NCBI GenBank assembly: GCA_963828195.1
Contig: CAWHDT010000005.1
Location: 224,001-288,000 of the forward strand
Source: Candidatus Bathyarchaeota archaeon
Lineage (GTDB): Archaea > Thermoproteota > Bathyarchaeia > Bathyarchaeales > Bathycorpusculaceae
DNA length: 64,000 nt
Direction of reading: 5' to 3'
In this document: positions 36,507 to 55,170 of the stretch, piece after piece
Numbering within the stretch: position 1 is the stretch's first letter
Layout: the number at the start of each line of letters is the position of its first letter
The notes under the pieces: model-generated
Told to the model about the DNA's origin: nothing
The model's input: only the letters and a program-made list of their open reading frames with translations
The model's database searches: none
Program-made: the position numbers and the translations under genes

Positions 36507-36590
36507 ATGTCCAATTGCAAAAGCCACAAAGGAAACAGTTCCGCACAATCGCTCAGCTTCGACTACTATTTTTACGGTTATTTTTCTTAA
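36507..36590 (+). CDS. putative Phe/Tyr-rich leader peptide of the aromatic amino acid operon (27 aa)
   Basis: MSNCKSHKGNSSAQSLSFDYYFYGYFS*; 7 of the last 10 codons are Phe/Tyr, none in the first 17; ends 56 nt before the operon. Confidence 0.75.
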   Translation: MSNCKSHKGNSSAQSLSFDYYFYGYFS

Positions 36591-47494: not shown

Positions 47495-48307
47495 TTAGAT
47501 GACTCTTGGGTAGGAGCCCAGGATTTTGACGAATGTAGCGTATTTCTCCAGCGCCTGCAGGGCTTCAGCACAGCGTTTTTCGGTCCTGTGGCCCTCAAAA
47601 TCCAAGTAGAAATTGTATTGCCACGCGGTGGTTTTTGTGGGTCTGGATTCAATTTTTGTCAAGTTAATGTTTCTTGATGCAAACTCGCCGAGCGCATGAT
47701 AGAGGACTCCCGGCTGGTGTTTAGTTGAGAATATGATTGAGGTTTTATCGTCGCCGGTGGGCGCAGCATCTTCGAAGCTAAGCACCAGGAACCGCGTGTA
47801 GTTCGTTAGGTTGTCGGAGATGTCGCGGGCGAGGATTTTCATGCCGTAGAGGTCAGCTGCTTTTTCGCCGGCGATGGCGGCGGCGTCTGTGAGGTTTTGT
47901 TCTTTGATTATTTTGACCGCTCCTGCTGTGTCGTAGGCGGGGATGATTTCCCATTTGTGCTTTTCAAGATATTTGCGGCACTGAGCTAATGCTTGGGGAT
48001 GCGAGTAAACGGTTTTGATGTCTTCAAATTTGGCTGCTGGATTGCCGATGAGGACATGGGCAAGTTTTACGGCGACTTCCCCGCAGACTTTCAGGTCGTA
48101 GGTGAGGAATAGGTCGTAGTTTTGGTTGACGCTGCCTTCAATAGAGTTCTCAATCGGAACCACACCATGCGGTACAGCGCCTGTTTTTACTGATTCAAAG
48201 ACTTCTTGAAAATCTCTGCAGGGAACGGGCTCTGCTTTGCTGCCGAAAAACTTGTAGACAGCCATTTCACTGTAAGCGCCGCTTTCGCCCTGATAAGCTA
48301 TCTTCAC
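47495..48307 (-). CDS. pheA: prephenate dehydratase
   Basis: QGESGAYSE, PIENSIEG, SHPQALAQC, NYTRF, IESRP, LGSYP. Confidence 0.95.
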   Translation of the reverse strand: MKIAYQGESGAYSEMAVYKFFGSKAEPVPCRDFQEVFESVKTGAVPHGVVPIENSIEGSVNQNYDLFLTYDLKVCGEVAVKLAHVLIGNPAAKFEDIKTVYSHPQALAQCRKYLEKHKWEIIPAYDTAGAVKIIKEQNLTDAAAIAGEKAADLYGMKILARDISDNLTNYTRFLVLSFEDAAPTGDDKTSIIFSTKHQPGVLYHALGEFASRNINLTKIESRPTKTTAWQYNFYLDFEGHRTEKRCAEALQALEKYATFVKILGSYPRVI

Positions 48308-49824
48308 TTTTTGTTTCCCTGTTTATGTTTAAGCAGAAGCTTGTTTATACCGTTTATCATTGCTTCAACGCTTGCCATAACGATGTCTTCTCTGGCGGCG
48401 TATGCCGAAACAAGGTTGCCTTCCTCGTCCTCCACCTTAATGACTACTTCTGCTACAGCGTTTGAGCCTCCTGTGATTGCTTCTAAACGGTACTCTCTGA
48501 GCCGTATGTTTTCCATGTTATTGGTTATTTTTTGGATAGCTTTTAAAACGGCGTCAACTGGGCCGACGCCTGTTTCGGCGGCAATATATTCTTTCCCGTT
48601 CAAGATTAGCCTCACTGAAGCAGTCGGAATAACTTTAATTCCCGTCATAACGGCTAAGTCGCTTAAGTCAATGATTTTTTCTTCCCCAATCACTTCGCCC
48701 ATGACCGCTGAAGTTAACGCAAATAAATCAGCATCCGTAACCATTTTACCCTTATCGCCTAACTCTTTAACACGCTGGACAATTTCCTGCAGTTGCCGCT
48801 CTGTCGGGTGGATGCCTATTTCTTCCAGTTCAGCTTTTATGCCGCTTGTTCCAGCAAGTTTTCCCGCAACTAATTTCCTTGTGCGCCCGACTAACTCAGG
48901 TTTTATCGGCTCAAAGGTCAGTGGCTTCTCTGTTACTCCGCGAGTGTGAATGCCTGATTCGTGGGCAAAAGCGTTTTCTCCTACAATCGCCTTGTTAGCT
49001 TGCACATTTATGCCGGTCAATGACGAAACCAGCCTGGAAGTGCTGTATAATAACCGCGTGTTTACGCCTGTCCTGTACTTGTAAATCAGATGCAAAGCCA
49101 TAACCACTTCCTCAAGTGAAGCGTTTCCAGCGCGCTCACCTAACCCGTTGACAGCAACATGCACCTGATCGGCGCCAGCTTCGACTGCGGCTAAGGAGTT
49201 TGCAACGGCTAAACCAAAATCGTCGTGGCAATGGGTGCTGATGGGAACGTTAACTACAGTTTTTAGTTCTTCAATGAGTTTGATGGTTGTTTTGGGAATC
49301 ATGATGCCTACAGTGTCGGGAACGTTTAGGGTGTCCATTCCTGCTTTCTCAGCTGCTCGGCAAACATGCTTTAAGAATGCAGGTTCTGAGCGCGTGGCAT
49401 CCATTGGCGAAAACTCGCATTTGAAACCATGCTTCTTAACGTACTCGATCGATTCGACGGTTGCAGACAGCACCTGCTCAGGCGTTAAGTTCACGGCGTA
49501 CTTCATCTGCACGGGCGATGTGGGAATAAAAACGTGGATTAAGTCAACTTCGCATTCGATTGCGGCGTCAATATCGCCTTTTGTTGCACGCGTCAAAGCG
49601 CAGATTTCAGGTTTTAAACCTGAGTTTGCAATTTCTTTGACGACTTTTTTTTCGCCCTCAGAAGAACTTGGAAAACCTGCTTCGATAACGTCAACGCCTA
49701 GCTTGCTTAGTTGACCTGCAATCTCAATCTTGTCGTCTGCAGTTAAAGTAACGCCGGGGGTTTGTTCGCCGTCTCTTAATGTTGTGTCAAAAATACGGAT
49801 TTGCTTTGAGGTTTTATCTGTCAT
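48304..49824 (-). CDS. leuA: 2-isopropylmalate synthase (or citramalate synthase)
   Basis: DTTLRDGEQTPG, HCHDDFG, GERAGNA, HESGIH, GVGPVDA regulatory domain; LeuA and CimA cannot be told apart by eye. Confidence 0.85.
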   Translation of the reverse strand: MTDKTSKQIRIFDTTLRDGEQTPGVTLTADDKIEIAGQLSKLGVDVIEAGFPSSSEGEKKVVKEIANSGLKPEICALTRATKGDIDAAIECEVDLIHVFIPTSPVQMKYAVNLTPEQVLSATVESIEYVKKHGFKCEFSPMDATRSEPAFLKHVCRAAEKAGMDTLNVPDTVGIMIPKTTIKLIEELKTVVNVPISTHCHDDFGLAVANSLAAVEAGADQVHVAVNGLGERAGNASLEEVVMALHLIYKYRTGVNTRLLYSTSRLVSSLTGINVQANKAIVGENAFAHESGIHTRGVTEKPLTFEPIKPELVGRTRKLVAGKLAGTSGIKAELEEIGIHPTERQLQEIVQRVKELGDKGKMVTDADLFALTSAVMGEVIGEEKIIDLSDLAVMTGIKVIPTASVRLILNGKEYIAAETGVGPVDAVLKAIQKITNNMENIRLREYRLEAITGGSNAVAEVVIKVEDEEGNLVSAYAAREDIVMASVEAMINGINKLLLKHKQGNKK

Positions 49825-49828
49825 TTTT

Positions 49829-50866
49829 TCAACCAGTTTTCACTGTTAGGGCTGCAGCAATGGCTTCCGCCATCCCCACGGTCGTGGCTTTGCCGCCGCA
49901 GTCTGGAACAGTTTGACCGTTACGTAACGCGTATATTACCCCATTCTCGATTGCTTGACCTGCCTGCATACATTTTTTATCATTGTATTTCTCGCCCAGC
50001 CACTCCAACATCATCTTCGCGGACAGCACCATGGAGATGGGGTTTGCAGTGTGTTTGCCCGCTCTGTTCGGTGCGGAACCGTGGATTGGTTCGAAGAGGG
50101 CAAAGTTGTCACCTATATTCGCGCCAGGAGCCATGCCTAATCCGCCGATTAGCTGGGCTGCTTCGTCCGAGAGGATGTCGCCGAACATGTTGCAGGTGCA
50201 AAATACATCGAACACTTGCGGCTCTTTTATCAGACGCATCGAAGCTGCATCAACGTATAACTCGTTGAAAGCTATGTCAGGGTACTTTTTTGCAGTTTCG
50301 CGGCATACGCTGGCGAATAATCCGTCGGTTACCCGCATGACGTTTGCTTTGTGGATCGCGGTTACTTTCTTTTTGCCGTTGCGTAAACGGGCAATCGCGA
50401 AGGCTTTTTTGGCTATACGTTCACAGGCGCCTCTTGTGATGACTCTCATGCAGATGGTTGTGTCGTTGCCCACAGTGAATTCTAAGCCTTTGTAAACGTC
50501 CTCAGTGTTTTCCCTGACAAACATCATGTCAATGTCGGGTCGAGCAACCGGAACGTTAGGGTAAGCCTTCAACGGACGCAAATTAGCGTACAAATCGAAC
50601 ATTACACGCAGCTTAACTATAACATCAGCCGCGCTTTCGCCTACCGGACCCTTTAAGCAAGCGTGGGATTCCCTGATTTTTTGAACCGTGTCTTCTGGCA
50701 ATGCAGCGCCTCTTTTTGCTAAGGTCCCGTCGCCCGCTTCAGCTTCAACCAAGTTAAGTTTTATACCAAACTTTTTCTGGGCAGCGTCTAAAACTTTCAT
50801 TGTTGCTTCTGTCAGTTCTGGGCCAATCCCGTCGCCGGGAATTAGGGAAATTTTGTATTCAGTCAT
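49829..50866 (-). CDS. leuB: 3-isopropylmalate dehydrogenase
   Basis: GDGIGPE, RENTE, HKAN, NMFGDILSD, EPIHGSAP. Confidence 0.9.
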   Translation of the reverse strand: MTEYKISLIPGDGIGPELTEATMKVLDAAQKKFGIKLNLVEAEAGDGTLAKRGAALPEDTVQKIRESHACLKGPVGESAADVIVKLRVMFDLYANLRPLKAYPNVPVARPDIDMMFVRENTEDVYKGLEFTVGNDTTICMRVITRGACERIAKKAFAIARLRNGKKKVTAIHKANVMRVTDGLFASVCRETAKKYPDIAFNELYVDAASMRLIKEPQVFDVFCTCNMFGDILSDEAAQLIGGLGMAPGANIGDNFALFEPIHGSAPNRAGKHTANPISMVLSAKMMLEWLGEKYNDKKCMQAGQAIENGVIYALRNGQTVPDCGGKATTVGMAEAIAAALTVKTG

Positions 50867-51366
50867 TTTTTATTCATCTTCTTCCTTAGGTTTTCGATTA
50901 ATCCACCATCTGCCAATATTTCAATTATGAATGAGGGTAGCTTTTCTACTTGAAAGCTTTTGCCTCTTGAAATATTTTCTATCTTGCCAGCTTCAACATC
51001 TACAGATAATTCGTCGCCGGTTTCAACGGCGGCAGATATGCCTTCGCATTCAATCACGGGTAAACCTATGTTAATCGCGTTTCGGAAGAAAATTCGGGCG
51101 AAAGATTCTGCTATCACACATTTTACGCCCGCGTACTTTAGAGCCAGAGGCGCTTGCTCCCGGCTTGAGCCGCACCCGAAGTTTTTGCCGCCTACCAAGA
51201 TTACGCCTTTCTCTGCTTTCTTTGGAAATGTGCAGTCTAAACTTTCCAGTGCATGTTGCGCCAATTCAGTTGGGTCAACTAAGGTCAGGTATTTTCCAGG
51301 CAAAATAACGTCTGTGTCAATGTTGTTTCCGAATTTTATCGCCGGGGCTTTGAATTTCATATTCAT
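50863..51366 (-). CDS. leuD: 3-isopropylmalate dehydratase small subunit
   Basis: NIDTDVI, NFGCGSSREQA, SFARIFFRN. Confidence 0.93.
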   Translation of the reverse strand: MNMKFKAPAIKFGNNIDTDVILPGKYLTLVDPTELAQHALESLDCTFPKKAEKGVILVGGKNFGCGSSREQAPLALKYAGVKCVIAESFARIFFRNAINIGLPVIECEGISAAVETGDELSVDVEAGKIENISRGKSFQVEKLPSFIIEILADGGLIENLRKKMNKK

Positions 51367-52631
51367 GTTTTTGCCTCCATTTTTCTGGGGTCAGTGATTT
51401 TGCCAGTGACTGCTGAAGCCGCCACCGTTGCTGGAGAAGCCAAGTACACGCTGGCTTTGGTGCTGCCCATTCTTCCGATGAAGTTCCTGTTTGAAGTGCT
51501 TACGCAAACCTCGTTTGCCGCCAGTAAGCCTATGTGCCCGCCTAAGCAGGGACCGCATGCTGAACCGCAAACTATTGCGCCTGCATCAGTGAAGATTTCC
51601 ATTAAGCCCTCATTTAACGCTTGCTTGTAAACTTCCTGAGATGCGGGAATCACAAGTGCCCTAACGCCGTCTTTCACACGTTTGCCCTTTAGGACTTGAG
51701 CCGCTAAACGCAGGTCTTCGATTCTGCCGTTAGTGCATGAACCGATGAACGCCTGCTCGATTGATATGTTGCCTGCTTCTGAAACGGGTTTAACGTTATC
51801 AACAGATGATGGGCACGCTAGTTGGGGCTCCATCTTTGAAACATCAAATTCCTCTGTCAGCTCGTAAACGGCGTCTTTGTCGCTTCTTAACGATTCAAAG
51901 TTTGGCATCGCCTTGACTCTGCCTTCTAAGAATTTGCGGGTTGTTTCATCTGGCTCGATGATGCCGTTTTTGGCGCCCATTTCCACCGCCATGTTGCACA
52001 GCGTCATTCTTCCAGCTATGCTCATGCTCTTTATTGTTGGACCCGTGAATTCTGTGCTTTTGTATGTTGCTCCGTCAACGCCCATTCGCCCGATTATGGA
52101 CAGAATTAGGTCTTTTGGCGTAACGTACTTTTGGAATTCTCCCTTCACGTTTATTTTAATTGCTTCAGGCACTTTTAACCAGATTTTTCCTGTAGCTAAG
52201 ACTGCGGCTGCTTCAGTTGAGCCTATTCCCGTTGCGAAAGCTCCGAAGGCTCCGTATGTGCAAGTGTGGGAATCTGCGCCGACAATTACTGCGCCTGGAA
52301 CAACATGCCCTTTTTCGGGCATAACTTGATGGCAGATTCCGCCTCTGCCTATGTCGTAAATGAGGAGTTTTTGGTCTTTGGCGAATTGGCGCATGGTCTT
52401 GTGCAGTTCTGCCGCGTTAATGGATTCAGCGGGTACTTGATGGTCCAGTATAACCACTGCTTTTTGGTTATTCCAAACTTTTTGTACGCCTATTTTATTG
52501 AAGGCTTCAACAGCTAAAGGCCCCGTTAAATCGTGCACCATTATCATGTTGACGTTTGCATCCACGATTTCGCCTGGGTGCACCTCTTGTTTTCCTGAGG
52601 CTTTAGCCAAGATTTTTTCTGTTATGTTCAT
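51363..52631 (-). CDS. leuC: 3-isopropylmalate dehydratase large subunit
   Basis: DSHTCT, GSCTNGR, CGPCLG, NRNF. Confidence 0.94.
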   Translation of the reverse strand: MNITEKILAKASGKQEVHPGEIVDANVNMIMVHDLTGPLAVEAFNKIGVQKVWNNQKAVVILDHQVPAESINAAELHKTMRQFAKDQKLLIYDIGRGGICHQVMPEKGHVVPGAVIVGADSHTCTYGAFGAFATGIGSTEAAAVLATGKIWLKVPEAIKINVKGEFQKYVTPKDLILSIIGRMGVDGATYKSTEFTGPTIKSMSIAGRMTLCNMAVEMGAKNGIIEPDETTRKFLEGRVKAMPNFESLRSDKDAVYELTEEFDVSKMEPQLACPSSVDNVKPVSEAGNISIEQAFIGSCTNGRIEDLRLAAQVLKGKRVKDGVRALVIPASQEVYKQALNEGLMEIFTDAGAIVCGSACGPCLGGHIGLLAANEVCVSTSNRNFIGRMGSTKASVYLASPATVAASAVTGKITDPRKMEAKT

Positions 52632-52700
52632 GTTTACTCTCTTCTGTTACAATTAACTAATATTTTCGATTTTTTTGAATAAACGTTGTGATTTTTGGAG

Positions 52701-52724
52701 AACGGAAAGTTAAGGTTTTCCGTT
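52701..52724. promoter_or_regulatory. perfect inverted repeat between ilvN and leuC
   Basis: AACGGAAA-N8-TTTCCGTT. Confidence 0.45.
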
Positions 52725-52736
52725 GTAGGGGACGAT

Positions 52737-53249
52737 TTATTCGTCTATTCTTACTGTTTTTGCTCCCCTTGCCAATGCTGTTATGCCTGTTCTTGCAAGT
52801 TCAATGACGCCTGTAGTGTGCATTAGGTTTAGGAACGCGTCAAGTTTGTCGGGTGTTCCAGTGATTTCAACTGTTAAGCTGTCGGTTGCGACGTCGATGA
52901 TTCGTCCTCTGAAGACTTCTACGCAGTTTATTATGTCGGAGCGGTCTTTGGGGGTCGGCACGTTAACTTTTATCAAAGCTAGTTCCCGCATCACAAAGTG
53001 ACCCGGTTCTAGCTCCTCTACTTTCAAGACGTCAATGAGTTTTGCTAGTTGCTTGACAACTTGTTCAAGTGTTTTTTCGTCAGCGTTTACTGTGATTGTC
53101 ATGCGTGAGGTTTCGATGTTTTCGCTGGGGCCGACTGTTATGCTTTCGATGTTGAAGTTTCTGCGTCTGAACAAGTTGGCTACGCCATGAAGAACACCTG
53201 GCTTGTTTTCCACGAGCACAGATATTACTTTGGTTTGTTCGGTCTCCAT
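52737..53249 (-). CDS. ilvN: acetolactate synthase small (regulatory) subunit
   Basis: VENKPGVL, FNIESI, QLAKLIDV, RELALIKV, ELARTG. Confidence 0.95.
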   Translation of the reverse strand: METEQTKVISVLVENKPGVLHGVANLFRRRNFNIESITVGPSENIETSRMTITVNADEKTLEQVVKQLAKLIDVLKVEELEPGHFVMRELALIKVNVPTPKDRSDIINCVEVFRGRIIDVATDSLTVEITGTPDKLDAFLNLMHTTGVIELARTGITALARGAKTVRIDE

Positions 53250-54961
53250 TAGTAGTCACCTCTCTGTTGTGGTAAACCGCAGCCTGGGGGCACAAATGGA
53301 ACAACATCATGTTCTGAGCCAATAGGCACATCGATTACCGTTGTAACTTCACTGCTTAGCGCTGTCTTAACTGCTTTTTCGAACTCTTCAAGCGAGTTTA
53401 CTCGTAGACCTTGTGCGCCATATGCTTCTGCAAGCTTTACGAAGTCAGGAGTTTTTCCCAAGTTAACTGCCATGTAACGGCGTTTATAGAGCATTCTCTG
53501 CCACTGCGCCACCATTCCCAGCACCGAATTGTTTAGCACGATAACTATGACAGGAATCTTTTCAGCTACTGAACAGGCAAGTTCTTGCTCAGTCATTAAG
53601 AAACTGCCGTCGCCAGCTATGTCTACGACGGGTCTATCTGGGCAAGCAACTTTTGCTCCTATAGCTGCTGGGAAGCCAAAGCCCATTGTTCCAAGTCCAC
53701 CGGAGCTGATGAAGGTTCGCGGTTTTAACGCTTGGAAGTATAGGGCTGACCACATTTGGTTTTGCCCGACTTCAGTGGTGACAATGGTGTCTGCTGGCAG
53801 CAGTTTTCTCAGCTCTATCAGTAAGGCTTTTGGCACCAATTCTTTGGGTCTTTCCTTTAGCAATGGGCTCAGCTGCTCTTTAGCTTCCTTAACACGCTTT
53901 GACCACGCGCTAACTTTCATCCTGGGTAGCTTCTTTACAACGGCAGCATGCAACAGCTTTAACGAAACTTTTGCATCTCCGACGATTGGAACGTCAACTT
54001 CAATGTTCTTGCCGATTTCTGCCGCGTCAATGTCTATGTGAATTTTTTTGGCGTTAGGAGCAAAAGTGTCCAAGTTTGCTGTTGCACGGTCAGAAAATCT
54101 TGTTCCAATAGCTAACAGCACGTCAGCTTCACCAATCAGCCTGTTTGCAGCTGGGTTTCCATGCATTCCAATGCAGCCAACTGACAGCGGGTGGCATTCG
54201 GGAAAAGCACCTTTGCCCATGAAAGTTGTTGCAACTGGCGACATCAACAAATCCGACATCTGCATTAATTCGTCGGACGCATTAGAAGAAATGACTCCGC
54301 CGCCAGCCAGTATCATTGGTTCAACCGCCTCAGCCAGTAAATTGGCTGCTTCGCTGATTTTATCTAAATCTGGATTAATCTTGGGGTTGTAGCCTCGTGC
54401 TTCAATTTTCTCTATGATTCCTGTCGCTACGTCAGCGATGTCAGATTGGATGTTTTTTGGTATGTCAATTAGGACTGGCCCGGGTCTGCCTGAAGACGCT
54501 ATGTAGAATGCGGCGTTAACCATTGGTTGAATTTCAGCGATGGTGCGCGGCTGATAATTATGCTTGGTGATCGGCGTCGTGATGCCAATGATGTCTGCCT
54601 CTTGAAAGGCATCTTTGCCAATCATATAGGATGAGTTTACGCTTGTGGATGGAACCTGACCTGTTATAGCTATCATCGGCGAGGAATCCATGTACGCGTT
54701 CGCTATACCCGTTACTAAGTTTGTAGCGCCCGGTCCAGATGTTGCTAAGCAGACTCCTACTCGTCCGCTAGCTCGCGCGTAGCCTTCTGCTGCGTGGGCT
54801 GCCCCCTGCTCGTGTCTAGCGAGTACATGTCTAATTTTCTCGTTGCCGCATAAAGCGTCGTAGACCGGCAGTATTGCTCCGCCCAAGATTCCGAATATAA
54901 CATCTACGTTTTGTTGCTCAAGGGATTCTACAAGTGCCTTTGCACCAGACATTTTGGTCAT
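53249..54961 (-). CDS. ilvB: acetolactate synthase large subunit
   Basis: RHEQGAAH, SGPGATN, DAFQE, GDGSF...NN ThDP motif, MVAQWQ. Confidence 0.96.
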   Translation of the reverse strand: MTKMSGAKALVESLEQQNVDVIFGILGGAILPVYDALCGNEKIRHVLARHEQGAAHAAEGYARASGRVGVCLATSGPGATNLVTGIANAYMDSSPMIAITGQVPSTSVNSSYMIGKDAFQEADIIGITTPITKHNYQPRTIAEIQPMVNAAFYIASSGRPGPVLIDIPKNIQSDIADVATGIIEKIEARGYNPKINPDLDKISEAANLLAEAVEPMILAGGGVISSNASDELMQMSDLLMSPVATTFMGKGAFPECHPLSVGCIGMHGNPAANRLIGEADVLLAIGTRFSDRATANLDTFAPNAKKIHIDIDAAEIGKNIEVDVPIVGDAKVSLKLLHAAVVKKLPRMKVSAWSKRVKEAKEQLSPLLKERPKELVPKALLIELRKLLPADTIVTTEVGQNQMWSALYFQALKPRTFISSGGLGTMGFGFPAAIGAKVACPDRPVVDIAGDGSFLMTEQELACSVAEKIPVIVIVLNNSVLGMVAQWQRMLYKRRYMAVNLGKTPDFVKLAEAYGAQGLRVNSLEEFEKAVKTALSSEVTTVIDVPIGSEHDVVPFVPPGCGLPQQRGDY

Positions 54962-55057
54962 TTCATTGCCTCTCCTTTTTGAAATTTATACTCTCGTCTA
55001 CAGAAGGATTGATTTGCAAATTTTTCAACGGATGCTTCAGAGGGTTCCCTGGACAGT

Positions 55058-55108
55058 TCAAAGAATAAGTACCCGACGATTCCAGCTATTGAGGTGACGA
55101 TCCCTCAT
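55058..55108 (-). CDS. putative branched-chain amino acid leader peptide of the ilv-leu operon (16 aa)
   Basis: GAGGA SD 6 nt before ATG; MRDRHLNSWNRRVLIL*; last four codons GTA CTT ATT CTT. Confidence 0.65.
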   Translation of the reverse strand: MRDRHLNSWNRRVLIL

Positions 55109-55155
55109 CTTAATTCCTCTTGAAATCCACGTTCCCTAAAAATAGATAATTGTAC

Positions 55156-55170
55156 AAATAAAAGGCTTAC
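55156..55170 (-). promoter_or_regulatory. putative BRE/TATA promoter of the ilv-leu leader
   Basis: minus strand GTAAGCCTTTTATTT about 50 nt upstream of the leader ATG. Confidence 0.55.

Follow-up and report, generated by a model that had tools for sequence, protein, structure and literature searches.

A conserved leader cassette ahead of ilvB in Bathyarchaeia as a probable +1 frameshift switch for amino-acid starvation

Enterobacterial ilvL, ivbL and leuL leaders combine codon runs with a terminator/antiterminator switch. Among archaea, a ‘leuA-Halobacteria’ RNA motif and a Methanothermobacter trpY leader have been named. The main text of PMC5737381 mentions neither, and its supplement may hold a note on an archaeal leu leader. 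Translational relatives are described in parts of a 2016 review of frameshifting (PMC5009743): the autoregulatory +1 frameshift of prfB, the gene for bacterial release factor 2; the ketolide-induced frameshift in the ermCL leader, which acts by unfolding an inhibitory structure; and a +1 frameshift at CCC_UGA in E. coli pheL, which was judged incidental. The same parts of that review know of no starvation-specific use of hungry-codon frameshifting. For archaeal recoding, sections of a 2021 review (PMC8211752) give a -1 frameshift in Saccharolobus fucA1 and shifts in haloarchaeal viruses, with one cellular -1 case, +1 shifting only in a virus, and no amino-acid sensor among them. Our survey of the literature, made through listings and abstracts with few subscription papers, found no published case of a starvation-sensing +1 frameshift cassette.

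Here we re-examine a short upstream open reading frame (uORF) that precedes ilvB in a 64,000-nt stretch of Bathyarchaeota DNA (the whole stretch is hereafter “the window”) and that a first-pass annotation had taken for the leader of a branched-chain attenuator. Comparison with related loci leads us to conclude that the uORF is a conserved cassette, which very probably works as an amino-acid-starvation +1 frameshift switch. Nearly as likely, in our view, Bathyarchaeia and other Thermoproteota possess a general, ribosome-run amino-acid regulon, in which a portable six-codon +1 cassette, used singly or in tandem and reprogrammed by one codon, serves Leu, Val, Ile and Trp biosynthesis and tRNA-synthetase genes.

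The elements first described on the minus strand of the window are all present: the T-rich box, the GAGGA Shine-Dalgarno (SD) motif, the 16-codon ORF and the gap of 96 nt between its stop codon and the ilvB ATG at 54961 (Table 1). The uORF encodes the peptide M R D R H L N S W N R R V L I L. Gene-family assignments likewise uphold the branched-chain operon downstream, which runs ilvB-ilvN-leuC-leuD-leuB-leuA-pheA (47495-54961) and encodes the large and small subunits of acetolactate synthase and of isopropylmalate isomerase, members of the dehydrogenase and synthase families and, as an addition at the end, prephenate dehydratase. This last gene (window 47495-48307, minus strand) overlaps the 3' end of leuA, so that control of the operon by Leu and Val may extend to a Phe gene.

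Table 1. Features of the ilvB leader region, in window coordinates
Feature	Position	Strand	Basis or remark
TATA-like box TTTTATTT (predicted)	55156..55163 (read 55163-55156)	-	sequence; T-rich box similarly spaced in genus loci
uORF Shine-Dalgarno AGAGGA	55115..55120 (GAGGA = 55119-55115)	-	core 7 nt 5' of ATG
16-codon zero-frame uORF with two putative sensing cassettes	55058..55108	-	ATG 55108, TGA 55060-55058
Internal SD-like run GAGGGATC	55099..55106	-	core 6 nt 5' of codon 5
Cassette 1, putative shift site His CAC (P site) + Leu CTC (sensed A-site codon)	55091..55096	-	
Cassette 2 (W-N-R-R-V), putative shift site Arg CGG 55075-55073 + Val GTA 55072-55070	55070..55084	-	
L-I-L tail, unconserved	55061..55069	-	Ile15 = 55066-55064
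Stop-free +1 frame, 48 codons	54958..55104	-	ends in TGA of ATGA, 4-nt overlap with ilvB start
CCTCT, predicted partner of uORF SD	55039..55043	-	kept in genus; two-sided covariation absent
ilvB SD GGAGAGG	54969..54975	-	sequence
ilvB, acetolactate synthase large subunit	53249..54961	-	first gene of operon

We collected ilvB loci by protein homology, fetching 151 of those listed and dropping two duplicates, which gave 81 distinct loci of the same order, with a genus subset of 39, and 68 from other orders. The uORF is present in 75 of the 81 same-order loci and is thus kept more often than chance would have it, as had been supposed. The six loci that lack it form one family, and they have no leader because ilvB there is joined directly to the upstream gene; in that family a Leu cassette precedes leuC instead (L173-L175). 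Within the genus, the uORF is 16 codons long in 36 of the 39 loci and ends on TAA (22), TGA (14) or TAG (3). Two of its codons, Leu6 (CTC) and Val13 (GTA), are invariant in all 39, and GTA is always followed by C or T, which avoids a stop in the +1 frame. The tail behaves differently. L-I-L follows Val13 in 14 of the 39 loci, and in seven the tail holds no Leu, Ile or Val at all (YFF, HFY three times, PRN, QFS, FNMCFS). Alignment of the upstream regions therefore sustains the uORF but not its V/L/I ending, and the invariant Leu6 and Val13 take the place of the V-L-I-L tail that had been proposed as the sensor. Ile15 occurs in 21 of the 39 loci, mostly after a slip-prone codon, and is a possible third site of lesser strength. 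In other genera, cassettes are added or come in a different order: Val followed by Leu or Ile, Leu only, or Leu, Val and Ile. In these alignments, the conserved unit is a cassette of five to six codons that ends in a branched-chain codon.

A classical stalling attenuator, in which a ribosome stalled on the V/L/I codons lets RNA structure switch termination or ilvB initiation, would account for the conservation of branched-chain codons; a helix between the uORF SD and CCTCT is predicted genus-wide, together with an inner helix that shows some G-C to A-U changes, and leaders of the run type are found at the aro operon and in further families of the class. The 5-bp TGAGG/CCTCA stem that the first-pass annotation placed over the start codon is indeed in the sequence and in the minimum-free-energy fold, but the leader folds no better than its shuffles (z +1.07). 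No terminator-like hairpin was found on the minus strand by a terminator and promoter scan, whose scope was hairpins and left aside hairpin-less archaeal U-tract termination; the absence of a classical terminator hairpin had been remarked at the outset. The ilvB ribosome-binding site (RBS) shows no sequestration across the 75 loci, with an unpaired fraction of 0.51 versus 0.50 in shuffles for the genus and similar values in other groups, and Rfam covariance models (T-box, riboswitches, leader families) returned only a chance snoRNA match (E 2.4). The sensing codons are single rather than in runs, and stalling leaves unexplained both the open +1 frame and the split trpE and citramalate synthase genes described below; with the unconserved tail, the missing terminator and RBS pairing no higher than in shuffles, these points make a stalling attenuator extremely unlikely. 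What survives of the attenuator proposal is a conserved and presumably translated uORF that appears to sense branched-chain amino acids, and what falls is its choice of sensor codons and its mode of output.

In place of an attenuator-type output, all 75 loci have a stop-free +1 frame. No stop interrupts it between the uORF and the start of ilvB in 75/75 loci, where dinucleotide shuffles predict 20.0 open loci, and it contains 0 stops in 1,981 spacer codons versus 151 in 1,986 and 113 in 1,947 in the other two frames, figures that overstate independence as the loci are related; with one locus for each of 14 genus/family groups, the open frame has p about 1e-9. Spacer length and phase relative to ilvB vary, so it is the uORF and not ilvB that sets the register of the open frame. 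Its ends nevertheless fall on the gene start: 53 of the 75 lie at -2..+8 and 72 at -19..+23 of it, two are at +43/+44, and one frame is fused to ilvB. Beyond the uORF, the +1 peptide is unconserved. The window +1 frame has no usable start codon, none occurring before its last three codons, and entry must therefore be by a change of frame. As an output, the -1 frame was rejected, being closed in the genus loci by TAG directly after Leu6 and open across the spacer in 19/75 loci, at chance level. In the other orders, the cassette occurs in 26 of 68 ilvB loci, with the +1 frame open in 23 of these and closed in 3; at one locus (L139), tandem Val, Leu and Ile cassettes feed a single +1 frame. Degenerate or partly closed cassettes, with a closed +1 frame or a stop within the Ile cassette, are seen at L104 (both leaders), L142 and L138, and may reflect decay or assembly errors.

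The cassette consists of a start codon, an SD-like RGG, DAT, codon 4, codon 5, which is slip-prone, and codon 6, the putative sensor. The pattern that selected the 75 ilvB leaders covered codons 1-3 but not codon 6, which is Leu (59) or Val (16) in 75/75. As it matches the downstream pathway, codon 6 must be read in frame, and since several cassettes have a stop at codon 7, we infer that the shift takes place with codon 6 in the A site. Codon 5 co-varies with codon 6. Among 20 distinct codon 5|6 pairs, 17 keep at least two of three re-pairings in +1 where 5.9 are expected, a test that also overstates independence, the pairs sharing P-site codons. The slip solutions are separate ones, namely NTT before TGG, CAA or GAA before ATY, and CGG or TGG before GTA. 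The first site of the window, CAC|C, allows one of three re-pairings and is one of the three poor pairs of the 20.

Codons 1-4 are computed to form an 8-bp bulged duplex with the 16S 3' end of the same genome (-11.5 kcal/mol), and the weakened SD-like run of the second window cassette gives -5.3 kcal/mol. The spacing from the SD core to the P-site codon is 6 nt, with the extended bulged duplex predicted to end 2 nt away from that codon, and after a shift the core would reach a spacing of 7 nt, which is the SD-to-start distance at 57 of the 75 uORFs. At bacterial +1 sites, the internal SD sits 3 nt ahead of the shift codon, according to the relevant part of PMC5009743. That a run at 6 nt would stimulate the shift is the least certain step of the mechanism we propose.

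A search pattern of SD, cassette and branched-chain codon, in which codon 6 was fixed as branched-chain, matched 97 of 301 class genomes (13 for the reversed control, counted from the table). In the phylum it matched 45 of 401 genomes, and two families outside the class gave repeated matches. We read 20 class matches, picked as not obviously known ilvB loci, plus other class and phylum matches. Leu cassettes stand before LeuRS genes, leuC and genes of the IPM-synthase family, Val cassettes before ValRS genes and paralogues of ilvB, and Trp cassettes before trpE. Ile cassettes are found ahead of ilvB, of IleRS-like genes and of genes in the citramalate/IPM-synthase family, including TIGR00977 citramalate synthase. 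When codon 6 was given a non-T second base (a search that excluded Met, Phe, TTR-Leu and a relaxed codon 4), 36 of 301 genomes matched, about the control level, and three of the 30 loci read had the architecture, all of them Trp/trpE. A GTDB-wide pattern scan matched at least 120 stretches; among those listed, all 14 titled Bathyarchaeia matches had the architecture before ilvB and bacterial matches had no consistent one, in a scan that sampled bacteria and does not exclude them.

Some matches were set aside. Three (L172, L226, L232) look like chance, a loose module pattern applied to six genomes proved unspecific, and a look-alike in this genome (C1:412660) is not ahead of any amino-acid gene. 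At four loci (L255, L257, L258, L263) a cassette-like sequence recurs whose +1 frame is the end of the upstream gene, probably a coincidence of coding sequence. Elsewhere (L221), a Leu-type cassette that may be real or a chance match leads in +1 into a 206-aa ORF with no NCBIfam match at E 1e-90, methyltransferase-like by eye.

Two rival accounts of the shift can be weighed on this evidence. In the first, the ribosome shifts at a fixed rate, for example at a slip-prone codon 2, and the cassette sets a low level of expression with no amino-acid sensing. Codon 2 (AGG or GGG followed by G, T or A) can indeed re-pair in +1, and nucleotides 1-10 are nearly invariant, but the agreement of zero-frame codon 6 with the downstream pathway, seen for four amino acids, requires that codon 6 be read in frame, and codon 5 changes with it; we regard this account as very improbable. 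In the second, the trigger is a nascent peptide or a free amino acid in the tunnel, as for TnaC or antizyme, and not an empty A site. The same order does have an Arg-rich R-D-R pattern, and zero-frame changes mostly spare second codon positions (3/42 changes). Across the class, however, the first five residues vary (R/G; D/Y/N; R/C/S/I/H/N; H/Y/F/V/I/L/P/Q/E/R/W) while the nucleotide pattern is constant, five residues barely reach the tunnel, and positive sensing of the product would switch biosynthesis in the wrong direction; we consider this trigger just as improbable as a fixed rate.

In some genes, the +1 frame is that of the enzyme itself. We collected trpE loci by protein homology alone and took the best 30, from 60 genomes matched. 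The motif RGG-DAT-NNN-NTT-TGG opens 26 of these 30, with the enzyme in the cassette’s +1 frame; 10 loci, including that of this genome, have no in-frame ATG, GTG or TTG before about residue 32, and a possible in-frame start exists in 16 of the 26 cassette-bearing loci. In this genome, trpE (G000:C8:192681, plus strand; L399) is split at the Trp cassette, and annotation will truncate the gene. Among 19 DxTLRDGEQ genes co-retrieved with the ilvB loci, a strict Ile cassette lies +1 out of frame in 15, variants occur in 3 and a degenerate form in 1. At four citramalate-synthase-family genes with an Ile cassette (L227, L234, L235, L118), the TGA within ATGA closes the enzyme frame, and no start codon in that frame precedes the catalytic motif DxTLRDG; several others of this kind also lack a start, and four have a possible in-frame one. 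This genome has such a citramalate/IPM-synthase-family gene (G000:C5:617710, plus strand), with the enzyme in the +1 frame of an Ile cassette; translation from an in-frame ATG located 11 nt upstream could avoid the cassette. The genome has three clean cassettes, at ilvB (Leu, Val), C5:617710 (Ile) and trpE C8:192681 (Trp).

A search of solved structures did not separate cimA from its leuA paralogues. A quick tree placed the leu-operon and Leu-cassette paralogues apart from the Ile-cassette ones (support 89, root unsure), and Ile-cassette genes from outside the class pass TIGR00977; we infer that the Bathyarchaeia Ile-cassette genes are cimA-like. The split genes could also be mended in RNA, by polymerase slippage or by editing that removes one base, and some cassettes do contain GGGG or T4-T5 runs. 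Since long runs are absent from the CAC CTC, CAA ATC and CGG GTA cassettes, and slippage would not select a cognate codon 6, we find restoration in RNA barely credible.

We therefore return to the starvation switch, for which we propose the following operation. With charged tRNA plentiful, the ribosome would stay in frame and stop too far from ilvB for reinitiation, and ilvB would be poorly translated. With Leu- or Val-tRNA scarce, the A site would stand empty and the P-site tRNA would re-pair one base downstream, a step that base pairing between the 16S 3' end and the internal SD-like run would favour. The shifted ribosome would then follow the stop-free frame, terminate on the ilvB start and reinitiate; continued coupling of RNA polymerase to this ribosome is a further possibility. 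With two cassettes on one +1 frame, the switch would follow OR logic (Leu or Val). At the trpE (Trp) and citramalate-synthase-like (Ile) genes of this genome, the +1 frame would be the enzyme itself, as in prfB. In Haloferax, reinitiation needs an overlap or a very short gap, and a gap of ~20 nt almost abolishes it there and in E. coli (PMC10666635). Given this rule, a zero-frame stop 96 nt off and a +1 stop overlapping by 4 nt make termination-reinitiation the likely output at ilvB; an effect on ilvB transcription through coupling is possible.

Leaders of another kind occur nearby and in other families. The parallel aromatic leader to which the first-pass annotation had appealed is found before the ask/aro operon in 19/19 genus loci. 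In the window (36507-36590, plus strand), it precedes aspartate kinase and the aro operon, has 27 codons ending in a Phe/Tyr run, and has downstream of it a U-rich stretch enclosed by a GCCCAGAAC/GTTCTGGGC hairpin. It is of the run type, without a cassette; at least one shifted frame reaches the ask start in 18/18 scored loci (+1 in 15, -1 in 12; counts without a null). In four other families of the class, 17 ilvB loci (L086-L098, L148-L151) have, by eye, classical-looking I/L/V codon runs, and two designs therefore coexist in the class.

If our reading is correct, hungry-codon frameshifting would here be put to productive use for the first time, archaea would have their first programmed +1 frameshift in a cellular gene, and attenuators, T-boxes and riboswitches would be joined by a further way of sensing amino-acid supply. 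The reading would imply that archaeal ribosomes scan SD-like sequences during elongation and that the annotated N-termini of many trpE and cimA genes are wrong, so that their gene starts could be corrected. It would also explain how costly amino-acid synthesis is controlled in an abundant and mostly uncultured sediment lineage. The cassette is ~18 nt long, and a swap of codon 6 is predicted to change the amino acid sensed, which is testable in model archaea; it could serve as a compact translational biosensor.

Comparison with the described systems, as far as the cited parts of the reviews describe them, places the cassette as follows. With prfB, it shares a short zero-frame ORF, an internal SD-like run upstream of the putative shift site, predicted +1 re-pairing in the P site and a slow A-site codon as putative sensor, as well as a functional product in the +1 frame (here in the trpE and citramalate-synthase forms). 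It differs in being archaeal and reused at many genes, in probably sensing a Leu, Val, Ile or Trp sense codon rather than a UGA read by release factor, in having its SD core 6 nt before the P site where prfB has 3 nt, and in that the +1 frame at ilvB, leuC and the tRNA synthetases is an unconserved linker ending on the gene start. The ilvB form resembles ermCL, where a leader frameshift sends ribosomes across a spacer and turns on the next gene (72/75 frames end within -19..+23 here); in ermCL, however, the trigger is an antibiotic and there is no cognate codon, and we detected no inhibitory RBS structure here. As in pheL, a +1 shift would occur in a leader that precedes an operon for amino-acid biosynthesis, but the archaeal +1 frame appears to be under selection and obligatory in many genes. 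With Saccharolobus fucA1 and the haloarchaeal viruses, it would have in common frameshifting on archaeal ribosomes. As in ilvL, ivbL and leuL, a leader ORF, here with conserved SD, start and stop, would read charged-tRNA supply ahead of ilv/leu genes, whereas here the sensing codons are single (Leu6, Val13) and accompanied by an SD-like stimulator and an open +1 frame. The cassette thus matches prfB in parts and ermCL in its leader form, and falls outside both classes and outside the classical attenuators.
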